The notes under the pieces were generated by a model. That model did no database searches, had not been told where the DNA came from, and saw nothing but the letters and a program-made list of their open reading frames with translations. The position numbers were made by a program, and so were the translations under genes. From a bacterium (lineage in GTDB: Bacteria > UBA8248 > JACPRG01 > G963555815): 64,000 nt of DNA. The stretch spans positions 288,001-352,000 of the forward strand of contig CBDHDG010000007.1 in assembly GCA_965261595.1 (NCBI GenBank), given 5' to 3'. Below are positions 1 to 15,744 of the stretch, piece by piece. Positions within the stretch are counted from its first letter, which is position 1, and each line of letters starts with the position of its first letter.

Positions 1-1296
1 CTCCGGCAGAGGGATCTCTTCGTCTTCGACGGCTGGGTCGGGGCCGACGTCCGTCACCGGATGGGCGTGCGCATCATCACCGAGAAGGCCTGGCACAACC
101 TGTTCGCCAAGACCCTCTTCATCCGGCCGACCCGGGAGGAGCTCGAGTCCCACAAGCCCGAGTTCACCGTCATCGACGCCTGCGAGCTTCACGCCGACCC
201 CGAGACCGACGGCACCCGCTCGCCCACGTTCATCGCCGTCAGCTTCGAGCAGCGCGTCATCATCATTGGGGGCACCCATTACGCCGGGGAGATGAAAAAG
301 GGCATCTTCGGCATCCTCAACTATCTGCTCCCCGAAAAGGGCATCTGCCCCATGCACTGTTCGGCCAACATGGCGGACGACGGCTCGACGGCGCTTTTCT
401 TCGGCCTCTCGGGCACGGGGAAGACCACCCTCTCCGCCGACCCGAACCGCCGCCTCATCGGCGACGACGAGCACGGCTGGACGGACAACGGCATCTTCAA
501 CTTCGAAGGCGGGTGCTACGCCAAGACCATCAACCTCTCCCGCGAGGGCGAGCCCCAGATCTGGGACGCCATCCGTTTCGGCTCCGTCCTCGAGAACGTC
601 ATCGTCGACCCCGAGACCCGCGAGGTGGATTACGACGACGACACCATCACCGAGAACACCCGCGCGACCTATCCGGTCGAGCACATCGACAACTGCGTCA
701 TCCCCGGCGTGGGCGGGCACCCGGCGGACGTAATCTTCCTCACGTGCGACGCCTTCGGCGTCCTGCCGCCCATCAGCCGGCTCACCATCGACCAGGCCAT
801 GTACTACTTCCTCTCGGGCTACACGGCCAAGGTGGCCGGCACGGAGGCCGGACTCAGCGAGCCGGAGGCCACGTTCAGCACGTGCTTCGGCGCCCCCTTC
901 CTGGCCCATCACCCCACCCGCTACGCCGAGTTGCTGCGCGAAAAAGTGACCCGGCACAAATCGGCCGTCTGGCTGGTGAACACCGGCTGGATCGGCGGCG
1001 CGGCGGGCTCGGTCCCCCGGATGAAGCTGGTCCACACCCGGGCGCTGCTGACGGCCGCCATGGGCCGCAAGCTCGACGACGTAAGCGCCTCGCCCGACCC
1101 TGTCTTCGGCGTCCTCGTTCCGGATTCCTGCCCGGGCGTTCCCGCCGAAATCCTCAAGCCGGCCAACGCCTGGAAGGATCACAAGGAATACGAGGCCAAG
1201 GCCCGGGAGCTGGCGAAGCACTTCGAAGAGAACTTTCGGCAGTACGCCGACCAGGCGACCGCGGAGGTCGTCGCGGCCGGGCCGAAATCCGCTTAG
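1..1296 (+). CDS. pckA: Phosphoenolpyruvate carboxykinase (ATP), 5'-truncated by window edge
   Basis: YAGEMKK, MHCSAN, kinase-1a [24 protein letters not shown] motifs; frame open from base 1. Confidence 0.97.
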
Positions 1297-1326
1297 CCGA
1301 AAAGCGTTCCTTGGGGAGCGGCCGAG

Positions 1327-1788
1327 ATGGCCACGGACGCCACGACGCCTGTTGATATCCGCATCGACAAGAAGCGGCTGCTCTACGTTGCCTGGAAGGA
1401 CGGCCACGTCAGCCGGTTTCCCCTCGGCTATCTCCGCAAGCTCTGCCCGTGCGCGACGTGCAACGACCTCCGGCAGAAGCTTTGCGACGCACAGCCTCAA
1501 CCTCCGGCCGGCGGCGGCTTCACGAGCCTCAACGTCCTCCCGGACGCCGCCCCGAGGCCGGTTGGGTCCACGGAGATCACCGAAGCCCATCCGGTCGGCC
1601 GGTACGCCCTCCAGTTCGTCTGGAGCGACGGTCACGACACCGGGATTTATTCCTTCGACATCCTCCGCGCCCAGTCGCCCGCCGACCCCTATCAAGCGGA
1701 TGAAATGTGGGAAGGGAAGCGCGTGGCCCGGCTCGGCGAGGACCTCGAAGCCGAATCCCGCGCGAAGAACGCCCCGCTCTGGGAGTAG
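1327..1788 (+). CDS. DUF971 / gamma-butyrobetaine hydroxylase-like N-terminal domain protein
   Basis: LRKLCPCATC and PVGRYALQFVWSDGHDTGIYSF motifs; GGAG RBS. Confidence 0.85.
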   Translation: MATDATTPVDIRIDKKRLLYVAWKDGHVSRFPLGYLRKLCPCATCNDLRQKLCDAQPQPPAGGGFTSLNVLPDAAPRPVGSTEITEAHPVGRYALQFVWSDGHDTGIYSFDILRAQSPADPYQADEMWEGKRVARLGEDLEAESRAKNAPLWE

Positions 1789-1804
1789 CGGCCTCTAAAT
1801 GAGA

Positions 1805-1828
1805 CACTGGCGGACAAGCCGCCAGTGG
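1805..1828. repeat. Palindrome CACTGGCGG-ACAAG-CCGCCAGTG between convergent genes (terminator or REP-like)
   Basis: 9-bp perfect inverted repeat just after the stop of 1327..1788. Confidence 0.5.
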
Positions 1829-1895
1829 CGCCCGTCTTTGAGGAGGTTCGGAATTCGTGAAGTTATCTACGTAACGCGACACTAACCATTCCCCC

Positions 1896-3350
1896 TCACT
1901 TCCGGTCCCAACTCCTCACACCCGGTTTCAGGTCATCGGTCGTCAGGATCACGGGCTTCAACAAGTCCCCGCCCTTCTCCCCGATGAGGCGAAGGGTGAC
2001 GCGGGGGGGGTCGGCCGTCGTATCGAACTCCAGAAGTCCGAAATTCTTCGAGAACGCGTTCGGGGGGCGAACGGGGCGAAATCCCCCGGGCAGAAATCTC
2101 CCCCGGTACACCCCCTGGGCCAGGGGGGAGCTGATGACCTCATACAGGTCGTACCCCCCGAAATCCGACCAGGGGATAACGTTGATCCGCGGCAAGTGGC
2201 TGTCGCCCGCCAGAAGAAAAACCCCGGTGATCCCATGGTCCCGGATATACCTGAAAATCTCGTCCCGCTCGTTGAGGAACGCCCCCCACGAATCTCCGAA
2301 GCCGCCCTTCCCCTCCGTCCAGGCGCCCGAGGCGACCAGGACCTTGAAGACCACCCGGCTTCTCCGCAACTCCGCCTTCAGCCATTCTTTCTGCCGGGTC
2401 CCGAGGTGGGTCTTCTCCGGTCCAGCCAGGGCGCGGTTTGGATCGCGGTGCGTGCGGGTGTCGAGGAGAAAAAAATCCACGTCCCCGATGGACCACCGGA
2501 AGAAGACACCCGGGGTTCCTGGAAGGCCATATCCGGGATTGGCCCAATACTCCCGGAAGACCCGCAAAGAATTCCCTTTGCCGGAAAACCGCCGGTCGCC
2601 GTCATTGAGGCCGAAATCGTGGTCGTCCCAGATAGCGAGCTGCGGAACGGAGGCCTGGAAATCGAGAAGGTTTTTCACCCCGCGCTGACGCCGGTATTTC
2701 CGGCGCAACACCGACGGATTCCCGGAGTCGCCATAGATGTTGTCCCCCAGCCACAGGAAGGCGTGGGGACGGGCCGAAGAAACCGCCCGCCAAATCCGCT
2801 GGACCGGGTCCACGTCTACGGACGCGCACGAGCCGAAGGCGACCCGGAATTTTCCCGGCGTCCGGGATGGAGGAAGCGTCCGGAAGACCCGCGCGGGTCG
2901 GGATTTTCCCCCGACCGCCTCCTTCCCGTTGATGAGAAGTTCATAGCGGTAGGCCGTGTCCGGATCGAGACCCGACAACGCAATGACTGCCGTGTAATCG
3001 TATTCCGGAAGCGCCGCGACGGCCCGTGACGCCAGTCCCCGCCCGTTCTTTTCGGATTTCACCGCCCGGTAGCGAACCTGAACCTTGTGATTCCCATTCA
3101 CGCGGACCCAGATCCTCGCTTCCCGATCCGAGACGAACCCAACCATGGGCCCCTGTAGAAGGCGGGGCGGCTTTTGGGAGCTGTCGGTGATTCCGGTTGT
3201 GGCGACGGGTTGGGACAGGGCTTGGCCGAGAAGCGGGCCGGAGGAGATCAGGAGGGCAAAGGCAGTCGCGGGAAAGGCCAATGCCCTGGCGGTCCCTACC
3301 GTGAAACCGCCGGAGCGGAGCCTTTTTCGCAGAAAAATCCGTTCAGTCAA
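1896..3350 (-). CDS. phoD: Alkaline phosphatase D (PhoD) family phosphoesterase
   Basis: AFGSC, WLGDNIYGD, WDDHDFG, LLDTR, GDSH metallophosphatase motifs; N-terminal hydrophobic export signal; start uncertain. Confidence 0.88.
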   Translation of the reverse strand: MTERIFLRKRLRSGGFTVGTARALAFPATAFALLISSGPLLGQALSQPVATTGITDSSQKPPRLLQGPMVGFVSDREARIWVRVNGNHKVQVRYRAVKSEKNGRGLASRAVAALPEYDYTAVIALSGLDPDTAYRYELLINGKEAVGGKSRPARVFRTLPPSRTPGKFRVAFGSCASVDVDPVQRIWRAVSSARPHAFLWLGDNIYGDSGNPSVLRRKYRRQRGVKNLLDFQASVPQLAIWDDHDFGLNDGDRRFSGKGNSLRVFREYWANPGYGLPGTPGVFFRWSIGDVDFFLLDTRTHRDPNRALAGPEKTHLGTRQKEWLKAELRRSRVVFKVLVASGAWTEGKGGFGDSWGAFLNERDEIFRYIRDHGITGVFLLAGDSHLPRINVIPWSDFGGYDLYEVISSPLAQGVYRGRFLPGGFRPVRPPNAFSKNFGLLEFDTTADPPRVTLRLIGEKGGDLLKPVILTTDDLKPGVRSWDRK

Positions 3351-3362
3351 TCGTTTTTCCGC

Positions 3363-3437
3363 TCAGTCGCGAGCGATGAAGATGCAGATAGCCTCAAGGT
3401 CATCGAAAGCCTGTGGCGTCCACCTTACTTAAGCCAT
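3363..3437 (-). pseudogene. RelE/ParE toxin N-terminal remnant (MA*VRWTPQAFDDLEAICIFIARD*)
   Basis: Overlaps antitoxin end; typical RelE/ParE N-terminus; stop at codon 3 and truncation after 24 codons. Confidence 0.7.
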
Positions 3438-3607
3438 CCAGCCATCCGCCGGCGGGCCTCCTCCTGACTGATCATCTCTCCACGGTTCGCTTGGCGAAGA
3501 CCCCTGTGAATCTTGTAGAGCAGGTATAGTCGGTCGATGGCGTCCCCAACACTGGCGTCGTCGGGCAGTTCTTCGATTGCCTTCAAGATCTGTTGCTTGG
3601 CTTCCAC
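3425..3607 (-). CDS. Putative type II antitoxin (RelE/ParE partner), copy 1
   Basis: GTG start with GGAGG RBS; IEELPDDAS...KIHRGLRQANRGEMISQEEARRRM pattern resembles 6433..6618. Confidence 0.75.
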   Translation of the reverse strand: MEAKQQILKAIEELPDDASVGDAIDRLYLLYKIHRGLRQANRGEMISQEEARRRMAGWLK

Positions 3608-3684
3608 AATGCACCCTCCCATCAAAGTTCAGCTATAGCGTAGCATGAACTCTGTCCGGGATCACTTCGCTTACCGCCGCGGGT

Positions 3685-3744
3685 GTATAACGACAGGCCT
3701 GAGCCGCGCGCGCAAGCGCGTCGGCCTCCAGGGGTTTGTTAGCG
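3685..3744 (-). repeat. attC site (60 bp)
   Basis: Minus strand: CGCTAAC-AAACCCCTGGAGGCCGACGCGC-TT-GCGCGCGCGGCTCAGGCCTGTC-GTTATAC, 10 nt after the stop of the upstream cassette ORF. Confidence 0.85.
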
Positions 3745-3754
3745 CTGAATATGA

Positions 3755-4343
3755 TCACAATAACCCCACTCGGTATACGCGAGCATAGTGATCTCGTGGG
3801 AGGGACTTGGACAATACGCCAATTACGTGAGCGTCGAACTCCCCGCCAAGCGCGTTTGTGAAAGTCATGGGCTTACCCGCGAAATATTCCGGCCGGATGT
3901 CCATTTCAGCCCCAGAAGGCAGCCCGAAAAAATGTTCGTATCCGTTGCTCGGGTTTCTAAAGTAAACTGCCATCTCTTCAGTCGTCACATAGACGAAGTA
4001 GCAGGTGTCCTTTGTGGCTTCGTGTACCAAGAGAAGTCGGTGCAGATCTCGGAAGACGTATCCAGCTTTTCGCGTCTTGGGTTGATTCTTCCCGCCGGGC
4101 GGATCACGGTCGTACTTGAACTCGATGGCGATTGACTGCCCACCGTAGTTTGGCAACCAGGTATCAACGTACGCGCGAGGTATAGCGGGGTGAGGATACT
4201 CGAGAACAACGTCGTCAGGAGGAACCCCGTCATAAAGGAGGGCAGCAAAGAGTGTGTACCGGACCAGAATCTTCGGTTGTCACGACGCCCTTCTCGAGGC
4301 GCACCTCAAGAAGTCTGCCGAACTCTTGAAACACCTTGTTCAT
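3755..4343 (-). pseudogene. Cassette gene, PD-(D/E)XK nuclease-like, +1 frameshift near 4265
   Basis: MNKVFQEF...TTEDS joins VRYTLFAALL...LEYPHP...VDTW...IAIEFKYDR after removing one base; D...EFK catalytic pattern. Confidence 0.6.
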
Positions 4344-4353
4344 TCTAACTTGG

Positions 4354-4420
4354 GGGAATCTGGGGGACACCATACCTATTTCTCAAAGTCAAGAATTTAG
4401 TATGGTGTCCCTGGAATCCC
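4354..4420. repeat. ~67-bp palindromic miniature element (GGGGACACCATAC...GTATGGTGTCCC), copy 1
   Basis: 12-bp inverted repeats flanking an AT-rich core; near-identical to 6701-6767. Confidence 0.85.
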
Positions 4421-4430
4421 GTGCGGTCTC

Positions 4431-4733
4431 TCATCTTCGCTGTTTCCAAGTGTCCGGGTGACGGTGCATATGCAGAACGGCAAGGATGACTACTCGATTC
4501 GGCTTCGGTTCAGGCACGAAGTAGATACCGTAAGGAAAGCGACGTAACAACGCACGACGCATGCCTTTCTCAAGCTCAGGAAATTGGAGGGGATTTTCGG
4601 CAATTCTTGCAAAGACCTCCGTGAGGCCGTCCAGAAATCGAGTCCCGAGTCCGCGCTGTTGCTCCTCGTACCATAACGTAGAAATCTCAACGTCAAGTCC
4701 CGCTTCCGGCCGAAGAATCAGCGGCCACGCCAT
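4431..4733 (-). CDS. Type II TA toxin, RelE/ParE family
   Basis: WYEEQQRGLGTRF...NPLQFP...RRALLRRFPYGIYF...ILAVLHMHRHP. Confidence 0.9.
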   Translation of the reverse strand: MAWPLILRPEAGLDVEISTLWYEEQQRGLGTRFLDGLTEVFARIAENPLQFPELEKGMRRALLRRFPYGIYFVPEPKPNRVVILAVLHMHRHPDTWKQRR

Positions 4734-4981
4734 TAGTCGGAGGGTTGGCCGCGAAGCCTGCCTCGCACTTCCTCCCGAACCTGCTCCCAGGTCTTTCCTT
4801 GTTCGGGTTCGGTCCGATAAGCCGCTAGCCTTTCATCTAAGACGCGCAAATGCCAGTTTGGAACGGGGACTTGCTGTGGGGTTGCCAGGATTCGCTCCCA
4901 AAGGGACTGCACATAGTCAATTTTCTCTTCCACCTGGAGTTCGTCGAACCCCGCTGGTGGGTTCGGCACAGCCTCGGCCAT
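4733..4981 (-). CDS. Addiction-module antitoxin (TIGR02574 / Unstab_antitox-like)
   Basis: LQVEEKIDYVQSLWE...VPNWHLRVLDERL...GKTWEQVR; stop overlaps toxin start; GAGGA RBS. Confidence 0.88.
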   Translation of the reverse strand: MAEAVPNPPAGFDELQVEEKIDYVQSLWERILATPQQVPVPNWHLRVLDERLAAYRTEPEQGKTWEQVREEVRGRLRGQPSD

Positions 4982-5057
4982 TATCTTATCCTCCTCAGAA
5001 GGAATCTACGCCGAAACATGCCAATTAGCAATTCTGGCGCTGCGGCCCTGCGAGCCG

Positions 5058-5110
5058 GGGTAACGGCTGCGCTCAGCTACCGACGGGCGAGCAACGCGAA
5101 CCCCCGGTCC
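5058..5110 (-). repeat. attC right half (left arm deleted)
   Basis: Minus strand GGACCGGGGGTTCGCGTTGCTCGCCCGTCGGTAGCTGAGCGCAGCC-GTTACCC, fused directly to truncated antitoxin copy 2. Confidence 0.65.
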
Positions 5111-5229
5111 GTTTGGCGAAGGCCTCTGTCAATCTTGTAGAGCAGGTAGAGTCGGTCGATGGTGTCCTCAACACTGGCGTCGTCGGGCAGTTCTTCGATT
5201 GCCTTCAAAATTTGTTGCTTGGCTTCCAC
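5077..5229 (-). pseudogene. Truncated second copy of the 3425..3607 antitoxin
   Basis: About 5113-5318 is a close repeat of about 3492-3695, including RBS and GTTATAC core site; coding identity stops at RGLRQ. Confidence 0.8.
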
Positions 5230-5307
5230 AATGCACCCTCCGATCAAAGGTCAACCATAGCGTAGCATGAACGCTATCCGGGGCCACCTCGCTTACTCGC
5301 CACGGGT

Positions 5308-5404
5308 GTATAACGACAAAGTTCAGCAGTCGGGGTCGCCGAGAGACGCTGACGCGCGCAGAAACCAGTGGGCGGCCCCGGTCTGCTGCAACGCCATGTT
5401 AGGC
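5308..5404 (-). repeat. attC site (97 bp)
   Basis: Minus strand GCCTAAC-ATGGCGTTGCAGCAGACCGGGG...CCCCGACTGCTGAACTTTGTC-GTTATAC, 7 nt after stop codon. Confidence 0.92.
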
Positions 5405-5411
5405 GCGGCCC

Positions 5412-6044
5412 TTACTCCACACGCTTGTACACGCTGTTCAAGAAGAACAAGAACAAAGGCGTTTTTTCCGACGCTGAGGGCATGCACGCCTTCAAGGACC
5501 CTGCCATCTCCACCACGACGTTGCACGCCCACCGGGCAACCGCTCGCGTGCTGATCTGACCGAGCCAAGATGCCGTCACTTTCGGCCCGAAATCTTCGCA
5601 GAGATCCTTTGCTCGGAGGCGCTGGAGAATCTTGTGCGGCTCTCCCGTAATATTTTCCGGCATCATGTGGATGATGGCATCCCGCATGGAAAAAAGAGTA
5701 TCGAAGTCTTGATAAGGTTGCGAACCCTTATCGTAGCTCTCGCCCCCAAGCACAACCTTGGCGAGAAGAAACTTGAGCCGAATCTCCCCTCTGGAAGCCT
5801 CTGTCTCATCGAGGATCGCCGCGACCGACTGGAGCGGTTTGTAACCGAATAGCGCCGAGTCGGATTCCGCCATTAAAGCAAGTTCCATGACGAAGGCTTC
5901 GAGCGTTGCGGCCGAAAAGAGAATTGCGACCAAGACGTCGTTTTCCGCGCTGGTCTTGTCAGGCGGTGCAGACTTCAGGCGTTCGCAGGCTGAAACTGCA
6001 ACGCCGAAGAGGATGCCAGAGTTTAGGAAGTAGCCGCCCATCAT
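5412..6044 (-). CDS. Cassette protein with HEPN-like RxxxxH motif
   Basis: ATG at 6044 with GGAG RBS just after core site GTTAGGC; AILFSAATLEAF helix and LFSMRDAIIH motif. Confidence 0.65.
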   Translation of the reverse strand: MMGGYFLNSGILFGVAVSACERLKSAPPDKTSAENDVLVAILFSAATLEAFVMELALMAESDSALFGYKPLQSVAAILDETEASRGEIRLKFLLAKVVLGGESYDKGSQPYQDFDTLFSMRDAIIHMMPENITGEPHKILQRLRAKDLCEDFGPKVTASWLGQISTRAVARWACNVVVEMAGSLKACMPSASEKTPLFLFFLNSVYKRVE

Positions 6045-6058
6045 TGCATCTCCACGCC

Positions 6059-6147
6059 GCCTAACGTTAGCGATGACCAAGCGGGCCGGCATAGGTAGAA
6101 GAGCAGGGTTTTAGGCATAATCCCGTCTGTCCATTACATGGTTATGC
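6059..6147 (-). repeat. attC-like site (possibly hybrid)
   Basis: GCATAAC 4 nt after toxin stop ... GTTAGGC before next ORF; internal arms pair poorly. Confidence 0.6.
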
Positions 6148-6151
6148 GCGA

Positions 6152-6445
6152 TCAGAGCTGATACTTGCTGATATCGAGCGAACCGTGGAAGACACCCAGG
6201 ACATCGATGTTCCGCCCATCCTTGATCAGATAGGCGATGCGGTAGTGGCCGTAGAGGAGAATCCGTACATGGCGGCTCGCTCCCCAATAGCGATGCCCCA
6301 TCTCAGGAAAGTCAGCCAGCACCTGCGTCCGCTCGTAGATGCCGTTGACGGTTTGGGCAGCCGCGTGCGGATTATCCTGGGCAATGTACTCGAAGATGTC
6401 CTTGAGCCAATGCTGAGCCTCTGCGGTCCAAGTTATCTCTGCCAT
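6152..6445 (-). CDS. Type II TA toxin, RelE/ParE family
   Basis: ITWTAEAQHWLKDIFEYIAQDNP...LADFPEMG...YGHYRIAYLI...GVFHG. Confidence 0.9.
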   Translation of the reverse strand: MAEITWTAEAQHWLKDIFEYIAQDNPHAAAQTVNGIYERTQVLADFPEMGHRYWGASRHVRILLYGHYRIAYLIKDGRNIDVLGVFHGSLDISKYQL

Positions 6446-6618
6446 GAGCGGATGCGTCGCGCCATCTCATCATTCGAGATGACTCGGCCCGCGTCTGAGT
6501 CAGTAAGCCCCCGCTCGACCATGACGTGAAAGGCCAGTTCACGAACGATCTCGTCGCGCGAGCTGTCCTCCGGTTGCTCTTCGATGAGCTTCGTCAGTTC
6601 TTGCTTCGCTTTCGACAT
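6433..6618 (-). CDS. Cognate type II antitoxin
   Basis: GGAGG RBS; overlaps toxin start; EEQPEDSS...VERGLTDSDAGRVIS pattern. Confidence 0.8.
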   Translation of the reverse strand: MSKAKQELTKLIEEQPEDSSRDEIVRELAFHVMVERGLTDSDAGRVISNDEMARRIRSWQR

Positions 6619-6677
6619 AGGCCACGCCTCCAGTCTGCCTTGAATCTTGTCACACTCAAAGAATACGATCAAATAGC

Positions 6678-6791
6678 AGATAACGACCCTGGCGTTCAGC
6701 GGGAATCTGGGGGGACACCCTACTTATTTCTCAAAGTCAATAATTTAGTATGGTGTCCCCGAATCCCGGCAGATTCAGCAGCTTGTTAGCT
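6678..6791 (-). repeat. attC site interrupted by miniature palindromic element
   Basis: AGCTAAC-AAGCTGCTGAATCTGCC [element] CGCTGAACGCCAGGGTC-GTTATCT. Confidence 0.7.
6701..6767. repeat. ~67-bp palindromic miniature element, copy 2
   Basis: GGGAATCTGGGGGGACACCCTACTTATTTCTCAAAGTCAATAATTTAGTATGGTGTCCCCGAATCCC, near-identical to 4354-4420. Confidence 0.85.
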
Positions 6792-6801
6792 AGGCAGCGT
6801 A

Positions 6802-7467
6802 TCATATGGTCCTGTGGCCTCGTCCATCATGGGACACTACTACGAGAGCCCACAAATTGGTGGACAACGCCATTTCGAGGGCAGCGATGTGTGCAAATGC
6901 CCTATAATTGTGCAGTATAATTGATTCGGCGAAGGTCTCTCCTATCACGTTGACGGGAAGCGCGTCCCGCATCGCATGATGCCAGGAAAAGAACCCATGC
7001 GATTTGAATGGACCCTCCTGCTCATATGCGATGGCTACTAGAATGTTCTTCAGCAAACGACATATTTGCCCACGCCACGCCTCGGGAAGCGGGTTCTGTT
7101 TGTCCCAAGCCGAGGCCGCCATGAACACAGCAGCCTGCATCTCAGGATCATCATCACAAGCTTTTAGAAGTTCAGCAGTGTGGAGCGTGCCCTTCTTGAT
7201 TTTCCAGTAGGCGCCGAAAGTGCCGTCACGTGTAAGGGAAACCCGCCGCGTCGGGATTTCAGCGGTCGGCCACCAATCAATGATGCCAGAACCAATTCGG
7301 AGTCCATTCTTCGGGGAGGAAACGGGGACCTCCTAGAATCGGACCGGAAGGGCTGCATCGAATCCCAACGTCATGCACGCAATCCGCCACGCGGAATACA
7401 GGTCAGGCCAACTCGGAGAAACGGGGGCTTGATGTTCGCCACGTTTACGCATTTGACTCTCTGGCAT
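6802..7467 (-). pseudogene. Cassette hypothetical gene (~221 codons) with internal TAG at 7333-7335
   Basis: ATG directly follows core site GTTAGCC (7468-7474); frame continues into ORF 6802..7140 with a single amber codon. Confidence 0.6.
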
Positions 7468-7630
7468 GGCTAACATTGTTTATATCGATCCGCATAACAC
7501 CCCAAATGCCGTGTCGATTGCCGTATAAGACGCCTGCGCAAAAGACAACGTTCGGGCATAACCAATGAGATATCACCTGTTGCGTCGAGGCGCTGTTCTT
7601 ATCACGGTGTTTTATACGGATCGGCATAAA
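7468..7630 (-). other. attI-like motifs (two imperfect direct repeats)
   Basis: TTATGCGGATCGATATAAACAAT-GTTAGCC and TTATGCCGATCCGTATAAAACACC-GTGATAA; no attC-like hairpin. Confidence 0.4.
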
Positions 7631-7652
7631 CCCTCATGATAACCTCAGAACA

Positions 7653-7736
7653 CATCGACGGGGCTGCGGAGCAGCGGCGGGAGGACTCGCAAGCTCGCTC
7701 GCGTGGACGACCGTTCGCTGCAGCCGCTTGATGGCC
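7653..7736 (-). repeat. Degenerate attC site
   Basis: GGCCATC-AAGCGGCTGCAGCGAACGG...CCGCCGCTGCTCCGCAGCCCC-GTCGATG; core AAC/GTT mutated to ATC/GTC. Confidence 0.55.
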
Positions 7737-7762
7737 GGCGCACCGAATCAAACGCTTTTGGC

Positions 7763-8215
7763 TCATATCGTGAGGTCGACTTCACAATCAAGGACGTGAA
7801 GGAGTGACAACAACGGGTCTATGGATTTGCGGTAATTCGTCTGATCGAGAAGTCGGTAGAATTGGGCCGCGGAAGTGCCAAGCCGCCGTATGATCTCCCG
7901 CTTGGACAACGGGCTGGCATCCACCCGTTTTTGAGCCTCGATGGTCAATTTGTAAAGGAGCAGATCTCTCAAATACCTGGGGTCCTGGTTGTATTCAAGG
8001 ACCTGCTCGATGTGAACTGTCCCCTCTTTGCCCGATTCCAGGACGTAAGTGAAACCTTCCCGGCCTAACTCCTTATCCACAAACACCCGGTCGATAGGGT
8101 CTTCGGCCGTCGGCTTTGGATTGACCTTGGCATAGGGAAAAACCAAGGTCTTAGCCGAGGCCGTCACCTCGAATGCTTTCTTTCGGTTGTTGTATGTGAC
8201 AGATCGGATCTTCAT
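7763..8215 (-). CDS. Putative antitoxin with C-terminal XRE-like HTH
   Basis: LSKREIIRRLGTSAAQFYRLLD helix-turn-helix; ATGA overlap with upstream small gene. Confidence 0.7.
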   Translation of the reverse strand: MKIRSVTYNNRKKAFEVTASAKTLVFPYAKVNPKPTAEDPIDRVFVDKELGREGFTYVLESGKEGTVHIEQVLEYNQDPRYLRDLLLYKLTIEAQKRVDASPLSKREIIRRLGTSAAQFYRLLDQTNYRKSIDPLLSLLHVLDCEVDLTI

Positions 8216-8406
8216 AACAAGCCTTCAGCATCCAGTTCCTCTATGAGTTCAAGAACTCTCCTTACTGCTTCGCCCTTCATGGGTTTCCTGTGGCCCAAAT
8301 CCCATTTCACCACGAGCTTCCCGTCCCGATAGACATGCACGTGTCGAGGGGGATGATCACCCTTCCAGGTGACAAAGACATCGCCACCCCGTCGAATCTT
8401 CCCCAC
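8212..8406 (-). CDS. DUF4160-like putative toxin
   Basis: 64 aa, DHPPRHVHV motif. Confidence 0.7.
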   Translation of the reverse strand: MGKIRRGGDVFVTWKGDHPPRHVHVYRDGKLVVKWDLGHRKPMKGEAVRRVLELIEELDAEGLL

Positions 8407-8412
8407 ATAATA

Positions 8413-8441
8413 ACGTTACCCCAGGAGGTAACACTTGTCAA
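8413..8441 (-). promoter_or_regulatory. Sigma70 promoter with overlapping palindromic operator
   Basis: TTGACA-N17-TAACGT; GTTACC-N6-GGTAAC inverted repeat at 8415-8432. Confidence 0.7.
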
Positions 8442-8477
8442 GAATCAATCACCGAAAGAGAAACGCTCTTCCCGCCC

Positions 8478-8509
8478 GCATAACGCTCAAGCTCAGCGGC
8501 GGCGCGTAG
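8478..8509 (-). repeat. attC right half at array boundary
   Basis: CTACGCGCCGCCGCTGAGCTTGAGC-GTTATGC. Confidence 0.65.
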
Positions 8510-8594
8510 ATCACTCTCTCAAGCCCGGGAAAGGATGGTTGTAAATCAAGAAAAAACTCTCTATTTTCCCAGGTCCATCCCGCGCTCCCGGCCC

Positions 8595-9767
8595 TCACCC
8601 GCACACGGGAAAATGGAACGGATACCGGTGAAGGGACTCCCCCCCGCCGGGTTTGACGACGACGGCCGCGCCGAGTTGAAGGCCGGCCTTTCCGTCCGGC
8701 GTCATGGGGTTGGGCTGGATGACGACGACCATGTTCTCCGCCAGCGTGAACGGCTCGAAGGCGTGGTTGGAGCCGCGCGTGCCCAGCTCCGGATTGCGGC
8801 CCCCCTCGCCGTGGAACAGGATGTCGAGAATGGGATAGCCTTTGTCCTCTGTCATCCGCGATGAAACCTCGACGATCTCCTCGCTCGTGGCGCCGGGTCG
8901 CGTGACCTCCCGGACGGCTTCGTAGCACTCCAGCGCCACATCGAAGAGCTCCCGGTAAACCGGCGTCGGCTCGGCGGCCACGGCGAAGGGCCGGTGGATC
9001 TGCGTGACGTATCCCCAATAGGTGATGGTGATCTCCATAATAACGGCGTCCCCCTTCTCCAACTTCCTGGGCGTGAGGAACTGCCACGGCACAGGGCGCT
9101 CCGGGTTCTCCATCGGGGTGGTGGACACAAAGTGGATGCCCATGTGGCCCGACTCGGGCAGGAAGGCGCTGTGGATGACGGCGCTCAGGTCATACTCCGA
9201 GAGTCCGGGGCGGATTTCCCGCTCCAGGGCCTCGCAGGTCAGGTCGGAGAGCCGGCCGCTTTCGCGGAGCCACGCCAGCTCCTCCTCGCCGCGGATGATC
9301 CGGATCCGGTTATATGGCCCGGCCAGATCGGCGAACTCGGCGTCCGGCGCTTCCGCTTTCAGGGTCTCGAACTGGCTGTGGGGGATCGAATTTCCCAGGC
9401 CGATCACACCGATCCTCGCCGACCCCAGCCCCCGCTCCTTGAGATTTTCCGCCACGGCCTTTCCGGGATTCGGATGGGAGCACCGGACGTCCTCCACCAA
9501 GGACAGGGTCCGGGTGCACGCGATGTGGTTGTAGAAGTGCAGGAACAGCGTCGAGGGGCCTTCCAGGGGGAAGACCAGCCAGGCGGGCCGGGCGGGAATG
9601 TAATGGCTGAGATAGTGGACCGCCGAGCCCATGGCGCTGGTCCCGTGGACGACGAGGGCTTCGACGCCTTCGGTCCGCATCATGTCCCGGACGAGACCGA
9701 AGCGGCGCCGGTGTTCCGCGCCGGAAAACCTGGGATAGGGACCGCCGCCCCAGCCGGGGCCGCTCAT
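8595..9767 (-). CDS. M24 (Xaa-Pro peptidase/creatinase) family protein
   Basis: Creatinase-like N-domain (FSGAEHRRR, HYLS); pita-bread fold region (IRPGLSE, LEKGD, RPGAT); start at MSGPG. Confidence 0.8.
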   Translation of the reverse strand: MSGPGWGGGPYPRFSGAEHRRRFGLVRDMMRTEGVEALVVHGTSAMGSAVHYLSHYIPARPAWLVFPLEGPSTLFLHFYNHIACTRTLSLVEDVRCSHPNPGKAVAENLKERGLGSARIGVIGLGNSIPHSQFETLKAEAPDAEFADLAGPYNRIRIIRGEEELAWLRESGRLSDLTCEALEREIRPGLSEYDLSAVIHSAFLPESGHMGIHFVSTTPMENPERPVPWQFLTPRKLEKGDAVIMEITITYWGYVTQIHRPFAVAAEPTPVYRELFDVALECYEAVREVTRPGATSEEIVEVSSRMTEDKGYPILDILFHGEGGRNPELGTRGSNHAFEPFTLAENMVVVIQPNPMTPDGKAGLQLGAAVVVKPGGGESLHRYPFHFPVCG

Positions 9768-9828
9768 CGATGGGTCCAAAACTCGCTTCCTTCTGAGTGG
9801 CGGGGATTGGAAGAGATTCTTCCTTGTG

Positions 9829-10194
9829 CTAGTCCTCCGGCGGCCAATAACCCTTGTAAGACGTGTCCGTCCCGTTGAGCCACGCCCGCGTGCCGAGGCC
9901 AATGATGGAGCTTTCATGAAAACTCCACAGATGCATTTCGTAAGTCTTGAGACCCCGGACGTGGAAGGGATCTTTCTCGACGATCGCCCGGGCCTCTTCC
10001 TCCGTCTCGGTGAACAGAACGTAAAACCCCACCGGGTCGCGGCCGGGGGCGAGCTCTCCCAGCGGACCCGCCGCGAAGAGCTTTCCCGCATGCTCGGACT
10101 CGAACTGAAATTTCAGGTGACCTTTGAGGCTTTGATCGGCCTGTTCGGGACTCACGCCCGGGACCGGCTTGGACAAAATCCAATAAAGCGGCAT
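9829..10194 (-). CDS. YciI/muconolactone isomerase-like protein
   Basis: HLKF...GKLFAAGP...EEARAIVEKDPFH. Confidence 0.8.
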   Translation of the reverse strand: MPLYWILSKPVPGVSPEQADQSLKGHLKFQFESEHAGKLFAAGPLGELAPGRDPVGFYVLFTETEEEARAIVEKDPFHVRGLKTYEMHLWSFHESSIIGLGTRAWLNGTDTSYKGYWPPED

Positions 10195-10422
10195 GTTGTG
10201 CGTCTCCTCGACATGGGAACCGGCGATGCGCCGGCGTGAGCGCCCCGCCTATGAACCGGACTCCGAGGGTTCTATCCCAACACCCCAAGACCCTTTCCAT
10301 CAGATTCAACCCGATTTTCGCGCGAAAGATAGAGTCGCGTAAAGCCTCCGCGCGCGACCGGACGGCCGCCCCGGCGACGGACCCGGCCCACCCGGACCCG
10401 GGATAGGACGCGGAGGGGAGGG

Positions 10423-11448
10423 TCAGGCGTTGCCGCTGAACTTCGGCCTTCCGGCCACGTAGCCGTTCTCCTCGAACCACCGGGCGGCGTCGCTCAGGGC
10501 GGTCTCGGGAGGGGTCTGCTGAAAGCCCAGCTCCCGGACGGCTTTGTCCGATTTGTAGAACATGTAATGGGCCGCGTGGCGAACGGCGGAGAGCGGGATG
10601 AGCGGCTGGCGGCGGGTTACGTATCTGGAGACGGCTTCGTTGACGTGGGCCATCAAAAGGGCAAGGCGGTGGGGAATCCGGATTCTCGGGGCGCGCTTGC
10701 CCAGGATGTCCGCCAGCAGGCCTAAAATCTCTTTCAACGTCAGATTGGCGTTCCCCAGGATGTAGCGCTCGCCGGGTTTCCCCCGCTCCATGGCCAGAAC
10801 GTGGCCGCGGCACACGTCCCGCACGTCCACCAGGTTGAGGCCAGTGTCCAGATAGGCCGGCATCTTTCCCTTCTGAAAATCCAGAATGATTCGGCCCGTG
10901 GGGGTCGGCTTCACGTCCCCCGGACCGACGGGGGCGCTGGGGTTGACGACGACGACCGGAAACCCTTCCGCGCTCACGGCCAGGGCCTCTTTCTCGCCCA
11001 GGTATTTCGTTTTTCGGTATTGCCCCTCCAGCGCGTCCACCCCCGGGTCCGAAGACTCGTCCAGGGGCGTTCCATCCGGAGAATTCCCCAACACCGCGAC
11101 CGAGCTGCAGTGAACGGCCTTTTCCACCCCCGCGTCCCTGGCCGCTTCCAACACGGCCCGCGTTCCCCGGACGTTGACGGCGAACATCCGCTCCGGGTCG
11201 GGAACCCAGAGGCGGTAATCGGCGGCGACGTGATAGAGCCGCTCGCAGCCCTCAATGGCCGGACGGAGCCGCTCCGGGGAGGTCAGGTCCCCCTCGACCC
11301 ACTCCAGCCGGTCCCCCGGCAGATCAGCCAGGTGCGCCCGGAGGCTGCCCGGCCGGATCAGCGCCCGGACCGTGTGGCCCTCCGAGACGAGGAGGCGGAC
11401 GAGATTGGCCCCGACGAAACCGGAGGCGCCTGTGACAAATATCTTCAA
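10423..11448 (-). CDS. hpnA: Hopanoid-associated sugar epimerase HpnA (extended SDR)
   Basis: TGASGFVG, HVAADYRLW, YRKTK, GDVKPTPTG; adjacent to hpnH. Confidence 0.9.
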   Translation of the reverse strand: MKIFVTGASGFVGANLVRLLVSEGHTVRALIRPGSLRAHLADLPGDRLEWVEGDLTSPERLRPAIEGCERLYHVAADYRLWVPDPERMFAVNVRGTRAVLEAARDAGVEKAVHCSSVAVLGNSPDGTPLDESSDPGVDALEGQYRKTKYLGEKEALAVSAEGFPVVVVNPSAPVGPGDVKPTPTGRIILDFQKGKMPAYLDTGLNLVDVRDVCRGHVLAMERGKPGERYILGNANLTLKEILGLLADILGKRAPRIRIPHRLALLMAHVNEAVSRYVTRRQPLIPLSAVRHAAHYMFYKSDKAVRELGFQQTPPETALSDAARWFEENGYVAGRPKFSGNA

Positions 11449-11504
11449 TTCAGGATTTCAGGCGTGAAGGCGATTCAGTACGGATAGCGATATGAAAAGA
11501 CAGG

Positions 11505-12650
11505 TCACCCGACACCGGCGGTCTCGCGGTCCAGGACTTCTTTTCGCTTCACCTGGATGCTGAGCTCTTTGACCTGTTTTTCATACCGGTACTCGGCGGA
11601 CCGGGCGCCATCCAACGGGATCTCGGGCGCCATGGGTCCATCGGTCCGGATGCCGCGGAAGGCGACCTTCATCGCATGGAGCGGGTTGGACAGGGTGTCC
11701 GTAACGGCCGTGGCCTCGTATCCGCAGTGGGCCATGCAATCGGCGCATTTCTCGTAATTGCCGGTGCCGTACGCCTCCCACTCAGTTTCCTCCATCAACT
11801 CCCGAAAGGTGGGAACGAAGCCCTCGCCGAGGAGGTAGCACGGCTTCTGCCAGCCGAAGATGTTGTACGTCGGGTTCCCCCACGGGGTGCAATGGTACTG
11901 CTGATTCCCGGCCAGGAAATCGAGATAGAGGGTCGAATGGCTGAAACGCCATTTCCGTCCTTTTCCGTGCCGGAAGATTTCCCGGAACAGGTTCTTGGTT
12001 TTTTGCCGGTTGAGGAAATGCTCCTGGTCCGGCGCCCGCTCGTAGGCGTAGCCCGGCGAAACGGTGATGGAATCAACCCCCATCTCCATCACCGAGTCGA
12101 AGAATTCGGCCACGTTTTCCGGATCAGTTCCGTCAAAAAAGGTGCAGTTGACGTTGGCGCGGAACCCCTGCTTGCGGACCTCCTCGATGACCGCCACCAC
12201 CTTGTCGTACACACCGTCCTGACAAACCGATGCGTCATGGTGCTCCCGGTCGCCGTCCAGGTGGAGGGAAAACGTGAGGTATGGGCTGGGCGTGAAGAGG
12301 TGAAGCTTTTTTTCCAGCAACAGGGCGTTGGTGCACAGGTAAACAAACTTCTTCCGCGCGACGATGCCCGCCACAATCTCGTCGATGTCCTTGTGAATCA
12401 GCGGCTCGCCGCCGGGGATGGAAACGATGGGCGCTCCGCATTCATCGACCGCCTTCAGACATTCCTCGACGCTGAGCCGCATGTTGAGGATGTCGCCCGG
12501 GTAGTCAATCTTTCCGCATCCGGCGCAGGCCAGGTTGCACCGGAAGAGGGGCTCCAGCATCAGCACCAGGGGATACTTCTTGTTCCCTTGAATGCGCTGC
12601 TTGAGGATATAGGCGCCAACGCGAATTTGCTGTATCAGCGGGACCGACAC
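11505..12650 (-). CDS. hpnH: Adenosyl-hopene transferase HpnH (radical SAM)
   Basis: YPLVLMLEPLFRCNLACAGC, CTPWGNPT, CADCMAHCGYE. Confidence 0.96.
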   Translation of the reverse strand: MSVPLIQQIRVGAYILKQRIQGNKKYPLVLMLEPLFRCNLACAGCGKIDYPGDILNMRLSVEECLKAVDECGAPIVSIPGGEPLIHKDIDEIVAGIVARKKFVYLCTNALLLEKKLHLFTPSPYLTFSLHLDGDREHHDASVCQDGVYDKVVAVIEEVRKQGFRANVNCTFFDGTDPENVAEFFDSVMEMGVDSITVSPGYAYERAPDQEHFLNRQKTKNLFREIFRHGKGRKWRFSHSTLYLDFLAGNQQYHCTPWGNPTYNIFGWQKPCYLLGEGFVPTFRELMEETEWEAYGTGNYEKCADCMAHCGYEATAVTDTLSNPLHAMKVAFRGIRTDGPMAPEIPLDGARSAEYRYEKQVKELSIQVKRKEVLDRETAGVG

Positions 12651-12798
12651 GGCCGGGTTCCTGAATGAAAGAGGCCAACAGCAACGAACAACCGGGAATT
12701 CGAGGATTCAACGGGGGGCTATCGTGAACCCCAACTGCCGGAGCGCGCGGTTCAAGGGGTTTGCGCCGCCTGCCAGTTTCGCCGTAAACGTTGAATTC

Positions 12799-12827
12799 AT
12801 GTTAATTGGGCATCGCGATGTTGTCAA
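12799..12827 (-). promoter_or_regulatory. Sigma70 promoter for hpnH-hpnA
   Basis: TTGACA-N17-TAACAT. Confidence 0.55.
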
Positions 12828-12876
12828 CTGAAACGCCGGGGACCGTCAATGGACTTGGGTCCCGATCCGGCCCGCG

Positions 12877-13968
12877 CTATCTCAAATCGAACTGACTGCC
12901 CAGGGAAAAGTAAAGACTGAAATCCGCGTCCACGGCCGCCGAGTTCTTGAAGTTCTGGACGATCCCGAATTGGGCCAGCCAGCCCTGTCTAAACGCCCAT
13001 TTGGCGCCCAGGTTGATTTCATAGCTCCGGTCCGTCAACGGCCGGACACTCAGCACGATGTTCGGATCCGCCGACTCCTCGGCGTCCAGATCCATCAATC
13101 CCCCCACAATCTTCAATTGACCGCCGATGGACCACTCCGCGCTGAGCAGCCGTTCCAGAGAAAAATGGCCGTAGAGAATGGGGTCGGGCTTCAAGCGCGG
13201 GGTTTGAAAAGGGTTGCCGGGGAGTGTTACGCCACCACCGACGGATACGCTCCACCGTCCCCAAATCTTCTGGATCGCCACGCCGGCGGCTCCGTCGAAT
13301 TCCCCGCTCCCGTGTAGGTCACTGAATTCTCCGGTTGGAAACTTGACGGCCAGTCGGAGCGAGACGGCCGGGATCCAGAAGGTTTCCTGAAAGACCTGAA
13401 ACAGGCCCTCCAAGGAAACATCCCCGACGCCGAAAGTGTCTTCTCTCACGTCGATTTCCGTCGTCCCGCCGTCAATCAGCCGAATGTCGACCTGATTCGC
13501 CGTTTCAGCCTCCCGGTCGCCCCGGATCCTGTCGATGGAACGCTCGACCGCCTCGATGAACCCATCCAGGAACCCACCATGGATATAAACGATCGGAACA
13601 TTCACCCCGAGGGTCAGGCGTCGGGTGAGACCATATTTGAATCTTCCGGTCACGCGCGTCATCTCGGCGTCGGCCTTGAAGAATGGTTCCTTCCCCGTAT
13701 CGTCCAACAGGGTGTTGGTCTCCGTGACGTCCAAGCGCACCTGGAGCCGCCCTTTCCGGAGCGCATAGGCCCTTTCCGGCGTAAATCCAAAGAAAAGGAG
13801 ATGAATGGGCTGAAGGTTCCGGATGGGAAGCGGGCCCAGAATTTCCCGAGGATCCATCAACTCGGCTTGACTGGATGTCATCCGGTCGGATTGAGCGGAG
13901 CCCTTTTTCTCGGCGGCGGCGCAAACCGCGGCCACCAGCAGGACACCGGCCGCCACGCCAATCCACAT
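12877..13968 (-). CDS. Outer-membrane beta-barrel, DUF3187-like
   Basis: Signal peptide; PLPIRNLQP, GGFLDGFIE, GVGDVSL, KFPTG...GSG motifs; amphipathic strands. Confidence 0.7.
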   Translation of the reverse strand: MWIGVAAGVLLVAAVCAAAEKKGSAQSDRMTSSQAELMDPREILGPLPIRNLQPIHLLFFGFTPERAYALRKGRLQVRLDVTETNTLLDDTGKEPFFKADAEMTRVTGRFKYGLTRRLTLGVNVPIVYIHGGFLDGFIEAVERSIDRIRGDREAETANQVDIRLIDGGTTEIDVREDTFGVGDVSLEGLFQVFQETFWIPAVSLRLAVKFPTGEFSDLHGSGEFDGAAGVAIQKIWGRWSVSVGGGVTLPGNPFQTPRLKPDPILYGHFSLERLLSAEWSIGGQLKIVGGLMDLDAEESADPNIVLSVRPLTDRSYEINLGAKWAFRQGWLAQFGIVQNFKNSAAVDADFSLYFSLGSQFDLR

Positions 13969-14313
13969 CCGCAATCCGGCAAACACCCAATTCGGGCGAC
14001 ACAAAAACGGCAACACATCTCTCCCAGAGAGAACCAATTAAAAATCCTTAAGGTATTACTTGAGTATAAAAGCCCCCACAACCCTTTGTCAACACAAGGG
14101 TTATCGAATCGTTCTCCATCTTTGTCGGGCTGTCTTAGAGGTTATCTCATCGGAGTCGCCTTGCAAGCGATTTCTTCAACGGCGTATAATCCGATTTCAA
14201 GATAAACATTTCCGGCACATTCTGATTTCGATCCCCTCGAAACGGGAAAAAACGGACCGGATTTTGCACTTTTTATCCGCCCGTCGACGAAATGCGTTTG
14301 AGCAGGACGTTTC

Positions 14314-15744
14314 ATGCGGTGGAATGCCGATCTGTATGCGAGGCCTAGGGTGCGCAATAAAATCCGGGTTTTGGGCTGGACGTTGGGTTTGGCCGTTTGG
14401 CTTTCAGTCGGATGTGCGGGTTTGTCTTCACTGCACGCGGAAACGTCCCAGCCCCTCCCCCCCCTGAAGAAAAGCCCTCAGCAACCGCAACTGCTGGTTC
14501 TCAGTCCACAGACCAAGCCGCCGGCCCTGCCATCCTCCTTGAACTTGTTGATGCACGCCCAGTTCCAACCGTCCACCCTGCGCCGGCGACCTGAAATAAA
14601 AGAAGAAAATGGCCGGACCCGGCCGCTGTTTCTCCCATTGCCGGCCATTGCCTCGAATCCGAACAAGGGGGTGGATTTCGGCATCCTTCCCGTCGTTCTG
14701 TTTTTCGACAAGGAGAACAGCGGCCGGATTAAGAACATCCTGGCGCCCTCGCTGATTTTCAATACGGAGACCGGTCTGAAAGGGGCCTTTCGCTGGCTGG
14801 GTTATCTGCCAAAGGGCGCGAAGTACCAACTCATCGCCATTCAATCCATCGATGTGGATTCGGATTACATCGCGGAGATTCAGGCCCCCCGGATTGGGCC
14901 AAACGACCGTTTCGCCGCCGCCACGGGGGTCCGCTTTGAACGAGACCCAACGAAGGTGTTTTACGGCTTTGGACCGGACAGCCGGAAGGGAGGCAAGTCG
15001 GGCTTGATCCAACGGCAATACCTTGCCTCTTTGAGCGCTGGGATTAACCTCCTTGAACATTTCCGGGTCAGCTACAACGAGCGGCTGCGCGTCGCGCTCA
15101 TTGAGGACGGCGGGGGCTCGCAGGACCCGTTTATCGGCGACACCTTCCCGGGCGCTTCGGGGGTTCGCACGTGGAGCACCATCTCGGCCCGGGGATTGAG
15201 CGTATTGTTCGACACCCGCGATTCAGGGGCCACGCCGACGCGGGGATATTTCGGGATGGTGGGCATTGAAATCTCACAACAAGCGCTCGGAAGCGAACAA
15301 TCTTTCACACGGGTTTACGGTGAGGCCAAGGCCTTCATCCCCTGGCCCAACACGCAGTGGATCAGCGCGGTGCGGGTTTTTAGCAGTTTCATTGATAACG
15401 GCGGCGTCCCTCACTATGAGCAAAGCGTTCTGGGCGGAAAGGATTTTCGAGGATTTCCCAGCGGCCGCTTTGTAGACCGGGGGGTTTTCACCGTCAACCT
15501 GGAAGAAAGAATCCAGGTGATTCGCTTGGAGCTTCTTCGGGTCCCCTTTGACGTGGAAGCGGCCCCGTTCGTCGAGTTCGGCCAAGTCTTCAACGATCTG
15601 GCAGACATCGAAGCCCGGCGGCTTCAGGTGTCTTATGGCTTGGGTATTCGGGCGGTGGTTCGGCCGGACGTTGTGGGAAAGATAGACATTGGAGTGGCCG
15701 ACGAAGGATTAAATATCCGCGTGGGATTGGATTATCCCTTCTAA
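14314..15744 (+). CDS. Omp85/BamA-TamA-like barrel protein without obvious POTRA domains
   Basis: FDTRD, LGG-FRGF-GRF motif, C-terminal DYPF; start uncertain. Confidence 0.75.
   Translation: MRWNADLYARPRVRNKIRVLGWTLGLAVWLSVGCAGLSSLHAETSQPLPPLKKSPQQPQLLVLSPQTKPPALPSSLNLLMHAQFQPSTLRRRPEIKEENGRTRPLFLPLPAIASNPNKGVDFGILPVVLFFDKENSGRIKNILAPSLIFNTETGLKGAFRWLGYLPKGAKYQLIAIQSIDVDSDYIAEIQAPRIGPNDRFAAATGVRFERDPTKVFYGFGPDSRKGGKSGLIQRQYLASLSAGINLLEHFRVSYNERLRVALIEDGGGSQDPFIGDTFPGASGVRTWSTISARGLSVLFDTRDSGATPTRGYFGMVGIEISQQALGSEQSFTRVYGEAKAFIPWPNTQWISAVRVFSSFIDNGGVPHYEQSVLGGKDFRGFPSGRFVDRGVFTVNLEERIQVIRLELLRVPFDVEAAPFVEFGQVFNDLADIEARRLQVSYGLGIRAVVRPDVVGKIDIGVADEGLNIRVGLDYPF

Follow-up and report, generated by a model that had tools for sequence, protein, structure and literature searches.

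The 64-kb window analysed here (G000:C7:288001-352000) comes from a 6.17-Mb genome of 7 contigs, referred to as G000, and carries near its left end an island of small minus-strand open reading frames (ORFs) and toxin-antitoxin (TA) pairs. Two spacers of this island hold REPIN-like elements, palindromes of 67 bp at 4354-4420 (copy 1) and 6701-6767 (copy 2), to neither of which a strand is assigned. Both were recognised by sequence comparison, by their hairpin fold and by a match to both ends of a RAYT (REP-associated tyrosine transposase, REP being a repetitive extragenic palindrome) encoded elsewhere in the same genome. The two copies are 93% identical over 59 nt, and a search of the 64 kb found no third, in agreement with the initial annotation of the window, which had reported two near-identical palindromic elements at these positions and none elsewhere in it.

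In each element, a core stem of 13 bp (GGGGACACCATAC / GTATGGTGTCCCC) closes a 24-nt loop rich in A+T and is bordered by outer units of 7-9 nt (GGGAATCTG ... GAATCCC). The order in copy 1 is outer GGGAATCTG, core GGGGACACCATAC, the loop, GTATGGTGTCCCT and GGAATCCC. The core stem of copy 2 has one mismatch (CCC vs CCA), and its internal junction, described below, is identical to that of copy 1. On either strand, both copies fold into a single long DNA hairpin of -16 to -18.7 kcal/mol, with z values of -2.75 to -4.17 against dinucleotide shuffles, of which 0-1 in 200 folded equally well; the values are -16.4 kcal/mol (z -3.86) for copy 1 and -17 kcal/mol (z -2.75) for copy 2. The shuffles, together with a reversed-pattern control, rule out a chance palindrome. 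Segmental duplication of an element-bearing cassette is ruled out as well, the flanks of copies 1 and 2 being without similarity.

A transposase gene bounded by the same GGGGACACCATAC ends, for which the initial annotation had proposed to look, was found at G000:C6:336164-336900. Here a 724-bp pair of inverted cores, GGGGACACCATAC at C6:336164(+) and GTATGGTGTCCCC at C6:336888(-), encloses an intact ORF of 222 aa (C6:336180-336845). The protein matches Pfam Y1_Tnp with 48.3 bits (cut-off 23 bits) and, at a score under that model's cut-off, NCBIfam REP_Tyr_transpos (REP-associated tyrosine transposase; E 2.6e-19). Among solved structures it matches E. coli TnpAREP alone (4ER8, E 6.8e-6). An alignment of 33 sequences, namely the 222-aa protein and 32 relatives, one locus with an internal stop having been left out, shows residues H60, H62, Y119 and N123 conserved to at least 95%. 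The corresponding HUH and Y-x3-N motifs are those that PMC6006769 gives for TnpAREP. Judged by these motifs and matches, the ORF is a predicted RAYT/TnpAREP-like transposase of the Y1/HUH type with its catalytic residues intact. A tblastn search of G000 returned this one full-length copy and fragments at 8 further loci, hence at least 8 decayed copies; several of these bear the same ends, and shorter core pairs enclose broken versions of the gene. It is noted that the genome also contains three distant Y1_Tnp paralogues, 28-38% identical, at C4:384896-385225, C7:693344-693547 and C7:1197215-1197496.

The alignment of the elements to this transposase unit accounts for both of their halves. The 67-bp element corresponds to ~21 nt from the left of the unit and ~28 nt from its right. 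Five copies share one internal junction (..TTATTTCTC|AAAGTCAAGAATT..): the two in the window, one at C7:583 kb, and those in G003 and G006, which represent two other genera of the same family. In all five, the sequence left of the junction matches the left end of the RAYT unit, and that on the other side corresponds to the ~28 nt that precede the right-end core. A second type of doublet in G000, with 29-nt spacing and the loop ..TTATTTCTGGAATTATG.., has a different junction; the miniature derivatives have therefore arisen more than once.

Copies of the core are dispersed through the genome of origin. The exact 13-nt core occurs 26 times in G000, compared with 0 for the reversed control; at ≤1 mismatch there are 52 units, a handful of which look like chance matches inside genes, and at ≤2 mismatches 143, compared with 67 for the control. 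A strict two-arm pattern matches only the two window copies. The core takes three forms in this genome: 12 head-to-head doublets whose arms are 28-38 nt apart (two are degenerate), single units, often beside tandem 9-mers such as GGGAATTAA, and core pairs 340-724 bp apart. The ten doublets outside the window lie beside insertion sequence (IS) copies or ordinary, for example metabolic, genes. Neighbours of the latter kind encode an amidohydrolase, an FMN dehydrogenase, a metallo-beta-lactamase-fold protein, a LUD-domain protein, an EamA transporter and a PnrA-like binding protein. Among the 82 ORFs neighbouring dispersed copies, a scan at E<=1e-4 detected neither ParE nor antitoxin families. 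An ORF of 431-443 aa near many copies was considered as a partner gene and rejected, being an antisense frame of an IS3-family element.

Tandem outer 9-mers (GGGATTCCA x4, TTAATTCCC x3-4), or an outer unit with a partial core, directly adjoin family units at several sites (G000:C6:~211783-211816 and C7:~712313-712348; metagenome loci L131, L139 and L191). Such arrays may have been left by repeated rounds of cutting and rejoining at the boundary of the element.

The association of core and gene extends well beyond this genome. A protein search over one genome per species found 95 relatives of the transposase, of which 80 were kept; they come from metagenome-assembled genomes labelled Deltaproteobacteria/Desulfobacterota, Planctomycetota, Omnitrophota, Alpha- and Gammaproteobacteria, Acidobacteriota, Armatimonadetes and others. 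The core is present at ≤2 mismatches at 33 of the 80 related RAYT loci; its usual positions, inverted relative to each other, are ~55 nt upstream of the gene start and 10-20 nt past the stop. When the best 41 of the 80 loci were compared, an inverted repeat spanned the gene at 33; among the remaining 8, the repeat was missing at 7 and the flank was too short at 1. The flanking repeats are nearly all of the GGGGACA..TAC type, and where they vary, the variants are mirrored at both ends (..CCCTAC/GTAGGG.., ..CAATAC/GTATTG..), so that the ends are conserved and co-vary across lineages. Within the class, 6 of 41 genomes have exact cores, 8 have RAYT matches and 5 have both. G000 holds 26 exact cores as compared with 1-5 in the five relatives that have any. 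No full-length match to the 222-aa protein was found in the 40 other genomes of the class, leaving the full-length copy in G000 as the only one.

Doublets were also sought in metagenomes. A scan for perfect doublets gave at least 122 stretches, of which 80 were fetched; 73 had full flanks and 7 were dropped for short flanks in the flank comparison given below. The same core recurs in the 80 fetched doublets, combined with a variety of loops and outer flanks specific to lineages. One contig (L164-L166) carries three identical 66-nt doublets, at ~14617, 16428 and 18156, that is 1.7-1.8 kb apart and with unrelated flanks, a local clustering like that in the window.

Considering the identity of the element with both ends of the unit, and the recurrence of these ends around related genes, we regard it as likely, with good confidence, that the 67-bp palindromes are miniature non-autonomous derivatives of a Y1/HUH transposase unit, belonging to a family that has no attC preference. 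The parent would be a 222-aa Y1/HUH gene bounded by inverted ends of ~22 nt, (GGGAATYNN)GGGGACACCATAC. An internal deletion would have brought the initial ~21 nt of the left end next to the final ~28 nt of the right end, after which the two conserved 13-nt cores could pair as the stem of one hairpin. In single-stranded form, this hairpin would be bound and cut by the one intact transposase of G000, acting in trans, and then moved or copied into new single-stranded targets, as for IS200/IS605 and as proposed for REPINs. The initial annotation had read the palindromes as a non-autonomous element, of REPIN type or like a MITE (a transposable element of miniature size with inverted repeats), tied to a RAYT-type transposase and aimed at attC. 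The first half of this reading is supported by the match to both unit ends; the second half, as described below, is not.

The hairpins might instead be immobile relics of a decaying RAYT family that persist as extragenic palindromes useful or neutral to the host, such as stabilisers of mRNA 3' ends or sites between cassettes to which proteins bind. The small size of that family, with one intact and at least 8 broken copies, would suit this explanation, as would the restriction of the full-length protein to one of the genomes searched, the stem mismatch of copy 2, and the occurrence of one junction type in three genera, which makes that type old. However, the element has no T-tract, no terminator-type call covers the whole of it and no promoter-like site was found at either copy; an Rfam scan of window positions 1-14000 at E<=1 gave no match at either element. 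One RAYT with conserved catalytic residues persists, the number of exact cores in G000 exceeds that in any relative, and the two sister copies in the window have different flanks, which implies movement after the island arose. We consider immobility improbable.

The position of the two copies within the island led to the proposal of a link to integrons, and requires a description of the island itself. It spans 3356-8207 (4,852 bp, minus strand), between a PhoD-like phosphatase gene and a DUF4160 gene. Window positions 1-3355 and 8208-16000 are contiguous, at 93-94% identity, in G001, a genome of the same genus, and 3356-8207 is therefore an indel. The empty site in G001 reads CAATCGTTATAACAAGCC, with the PhoD-like and DUF4160 genes adjacent there; it contains a palindrome, GTTATAAC, that resembles the attC-type core of the island. 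All genes of the island are small and on the minus strand: two ParE-family pairs, a helix-turn-helix protein, a duplicated small-ORF unit and a frameshifted ORF. The first pair, which lies upstream of copy 1 in the minus-strand sense, comprises an antitoxin (Unstab_antitox, 4733-4981, minus strand; PF09720, E 1e-13) and a ParE-family toxin (4431-4733, minus strand; PF05016, E 1.1e-5). A second ParE-family toxin (6152-6445, minus strand; PF05016, E 1.2e-16) is part of the cassette coming after copy 2 in the minus-strand sense, and the small ORF upstream of it (6433-6672, minus strand; no Pfam match) is a probable antitoxin. The duplicated unit, a small cassette present twice, is a direct repeat of 195 nt (3480-3674 and 5102-5296, 90% identity) that contains a 56-66-aa ORF and extends to the GTTATAC core of the attC-like site before it.

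According to PMC5027507, attC sites feature R''/R' boxes, an unpaired spacer, and L arms that are complementary and contain bulged bases. Two island spacers have this layout, with an inverse core ..CTAAC, an unpaired spacer, a stem bulged on one arm and a variable loop. The better one, at 3683-3746 (minus strand), runs from GCGCTAAC through an unpaired spacer, a bulged stem and a 4-nt loop to GTCGTTATAC, and folds with -14.3/-14.7 kcal/mol (z -0.67/-1.27). The other, of ~100 nt at 5301-5406 (minus strand; z -1.40/-1.16), consists of GCCTAAC, a spacer, a bulged stem, a large loop and GTCGTTATAC. An attC-like fold is thus present in 2 of the 5 island spacers and is weak relative to shuffles (z -0.67 to -1.40); two other spacers fold poorly. 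The motif GTCGTTAT has 62 matches in the genome, and nowhere but in the island do three of them fall within 3 kb. Two home-made attC scanners, based on R-box complementarity with constrained fold or duplex energy, were dropped because they were unspecific or missed the best sites; one of them gave 3429 genome matches. No integron integrase was found in G000 at the TIGR02249 cut-off (best score 78.5 vs 265 bits), and none at E<=1e-30 in 41 genomes of the class, in a search run without a positive control.

A cluster of attC sites lacking an integron integrase is termed a CALIN. The island resembles a CALIN in its row of same-strand small ORFs and TA pairs, in having at least 2 attC-like hairpins and in the lack of any integrase found. 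It differs in that the attC calls were made without the standard covariance model, that of IntegronFinder (PMC4889954), and that three of the five spacers fold poorly. At best, the island is a cluster of attC-like sites without an integrase.

Copy 2 was said in the initial annotation to sit between the two arms of an attC. The boxes are indeed present: AGATAAC (6678-6684) and GTTAGCT (6785-6791) flank the element and fit the R-box motif common to the better attC-like hairpins of the island. The left flank (6678-6700, minus strand) reads AGATAACGAC..GTTCAGC on the plus strand, equivalent to GTCGTTATCT, an R'-type core, on the minus strand. The right flank (6768-6791, minus strand) is GGCAGATTCAGCAGCTTGTTAGCT on the plus strand, with AGCTAAC, an R''-type inverse core, on the minus strand. 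The adjacent arms, however, do not pair. They are non-complementary and both hold TTCAGC in the same sense, at 6694-6699 and within 6768-6776, and with the element removed only ~47 nt of the site are left. What surrounds copy 2 is attC-like but has lost its arms, and it is not to be read as an attC with a large loop. It is also noted that CAGATTC to the right of copy 2 is complementary to GAATCTG of the element's left outer unit, displaced by 9 nt.

For copy 1, the earlier description is accurate. The element ends 10 nt from the stop of the ParE-family ORF at 4431-4733, and is followed on the minus strand by CCAA-GTTAGAA-TG, whose ATG opens the frameshifted ORF. The only core-like site after copy 1 (GTTAGAATG, 4341-4349, minus strand) overlaps this ATG, and there is no inverse-core (R'') side. 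The ORF at 3755-4343 (minus strand) is split into three overlapping frames (4343-4236, 4248-3985 and 4156-3755), has no Pfam match and is probably a frameshifted cassette gene. G001 contains a 106-nt ParE fragment 96% identical to the window, and the homology stops within ~3 nt of the right edge of copy 1; in G001, an inverse-core-like GGCTAAC occurs 35 nt after the stop of the fragment, where the window has the element. This comparison marks the edge of copy 1 as a breakpoint and leaves the prior content of the site undefined. A search of the G001 contig (C49) for a sister array found a single inverse-core-like site, that beside the ParE fragment.

The initial annotation had further proposed that the element targets or replaces attC hairpins and could freeze cassettes. 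The family was compared in this respect by a crude attC signature, TAAC on one side and GTTA on the other, each at a distance of up to 60 nt, with the arrangement GTTA...TAAC in the same metagenome set as control. Copy 2 has such flanks and copy 1 does not; elsewhere in the genome they occur at 1 of 10 doublets. For the metagenome doublets the count is 1 of 73 (from at least 122), as compared with 1 of 73 for the control arrangement. Unrelated, non-attC flanks also surround the copies in G003 and G006. A full-text literature search turned up no paper that describes REP, REPIN or RAYT elements within attC sites, and PMC8266576 draws only an analogy between TnpAREP and IntI. The hairpin family is dispersed and shows no special preference for attC. 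Copies scattered through ordinary intergenic and IS-rich DNA with no enrichment at attC, the pattern that the initial annotation had set against its own proposal, are what is observed. The freezing of cassettes is moot in G000 because no IntI was detected in the genome.

Specific targeting of folded attC hairpins, with immobilisation of integron cassettes, nevertheless has several observations on its side. Both window copies occupy inter-cassette positions in the only attC-like array found in the genome, 2 of the 12 doublets thereby falling inside 0.08% of its length; copy 2 lies between attC-type R boxes, and the GGCTAAC of G001 stands where the window has copy 1. Against this, 9 of 10 other own-genome doublets are without TAAC...GTTA flanks, the scanned neighbours include no ParE or antitoxin family, the metagenome count equals its control, and the copies of the two other genera have non-attC flanks. 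The window copies are sisters (93%, same outer GGGAATCTG) and so count as roughly a single independent event. In an island of this kind any spacer is an "attC position", which makes landing at one the default outcome, and the searches found no IntI to be blocked. Regarded as a family property, attC targeting is largely refuted, and we hold it very unlikely. In a weaker form of the idea, the element, needing single-stranded targets, would insert opportunistically into extruded attC hairpins, destroying their L arms and fixing the cassettes; copy 2, with R boxes kept and arms lost, and copy 1, with only GTTAGAA, would then be two stages of the process. The chance of this weaker form appears just as slim.

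The least probable alternative, which we give hardly any weight, is that a DDE transposase moves the element as a classical MITE bounded by terminal inverted repeats and that the link to Y1 is coincidental. In its favour, the element ends are terminal inverted repeats in the formal sense, copy 2 has TTCAGC on either side, and an IS3-family element, one candidate mover, is frequent near family sites (13 of 36 within 1 kb of a copy vs 10% for random points). Against it, the ends of that element (TCCCCCGCTCTAGGG... / ...GGGGCGGTCCA) are unrelated to those of the palindromes, TTCAGC is not adjacent to copy 2 on the right side and has no counterpart at copy 1, and the gene between the palindrome's ends is a Y1 transposase at many loci in genomes labelled as several phyla, these loci having been retrieved with the RAYT protein. 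A target-site duplication was rejected, the displaced TTCAGC of copy 2 being the sole instance, with none adjacent at copy 1, at C7:583 kb or in G003 and G006. The IS3-family element itself is 1404 bp long (OrfA HTH_Tnp_1 and OrfB rve; e.g. C7:737128-738531, L116:529-1932) and is present in ~190 copies of 98-99% identity, amounting to 262.7 kb or ~4.3% of G000. At C6:1663863, an IS end directly abuts a hairpin-family unit.

Returning to derivation from the Y1/HUH unit, the history of the two window copies can be outlined. They are each other's nearest relatives, with a common outer GGGAATCTG and unrelated flanks. From the doublet positions, the expected number of doublet pairs as close as 2.3 kb is ~0.05 by simple arithmetic (12 doublets in 6.17 Mb). 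The clustering is real but modest. Most probably the element colonised the island once and then hopped over a short distance: both copies would have landed in inter-ORF spacers of a small, integrase-less, cassette-like TA island, copy 2 coming to sit inside a former attC-like site whose arms no longer pair, and copy 1 being left with the core-like GTTAGAA.

Several points weigh against this account. At the locus, the 6-nt direct repeat TTCAGC near both sides of copy 2 is unexplained. Two of 12 doublets in a 4.85-kb island exceed uniform scatter, and this suggests some local bias, for which a hop is only one explanation. The homologous cassettes with an empty site for which the initial annotation had hoped were not found: neither copy has a clean empty site in G001, which is without the whole island, or in G032 and G008, where the homologous TA pairs have unrelated flanks and no cassette context. 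The mobility of the two window copies is therefore inferred. Others concern the fit to known REPIN-RAYT systems. The canonical REP described in PMC6006769 is a palindrome with a 5' GT[AG]G foot, whereas the 13-nt GGGGACACCATAC is a half-site that is not self-complementary and has no such foot, GTAT/GTAG lying inside the stem of the doublet. Classical RAYTs are presented as single-copy genes that do not transpose as a unit (PMC5581495, PMC6006769); unlike the single-copy domesticated RAYTs of Groups 2 and 3, the unit here has multiplied, to one intact and at least 8 decayed copies. The score of the protein against NCBIfam REP_Tyr_transpos, 69.6 bits, is under the 80-bit cut-off of that model.

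Despite these differences, much is shared with REPIN-RAYT systems (REPtrons): a Y1/HUH transposase with HUH and Y...N motifs, a gene flanked by inverted copies of a short repeat, extragenic dispersal of that repeat as hairpin-forming doublets, and the co-occurrence of repeat and gene in genomes. The numbers are smaller, 26 exact cores and 12 doublets here as compared with REPIN populations of hundreds. The system has features in common with IS200/IS605 elements (IS608, ISDra2) as well, namely membership of the Pfam Y1_Tnp superfamily, a multi-copy, transposase-only unit of ~740 bp and a single-stranded hairpin as the presumed substrate. The ends of IS200/IS605 elements are not mutual inverted repeats, and each has its own subterminal hairpin. 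In contrast, both ends of the present unit are mutual inverted repeats over 13-22 nt that pair with each other, and the motif is Y-x3-N, as in TnpAREP, instead of Y-x3-Q (PMC6006769). Among the known attC-seeking elements are IS1111-attC and the group IIC-attC introns (PMC3001079). They insert at a defined attC position in many cassettes, a preference that the hairpin family does not show, copy 2 alone lying between the R boxes of an attC-like site; the enzyme here is of the Y1/HUH type and neither a DEDD transposase nor an intron reverse transcriptase. Taken together, the element and its transposase are an atypical, IS-like form of a REPIN-RAYT system.

No new mechanism is opened by these results, and the integron link failed testing. 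What they provide is a tidy case of a REPIN-like miniature element whose cognate transposase has been identified. For annotation, such hairpins should not be taken for attC sites, terminators or small RNAs. The RAYT clade described here, with its conserved 13-nt end, is still IS-like, having a multi-copy, decaying unit and deletion derivatives, and as such it is relevant to how RAYTs go from selfish to domesticated.

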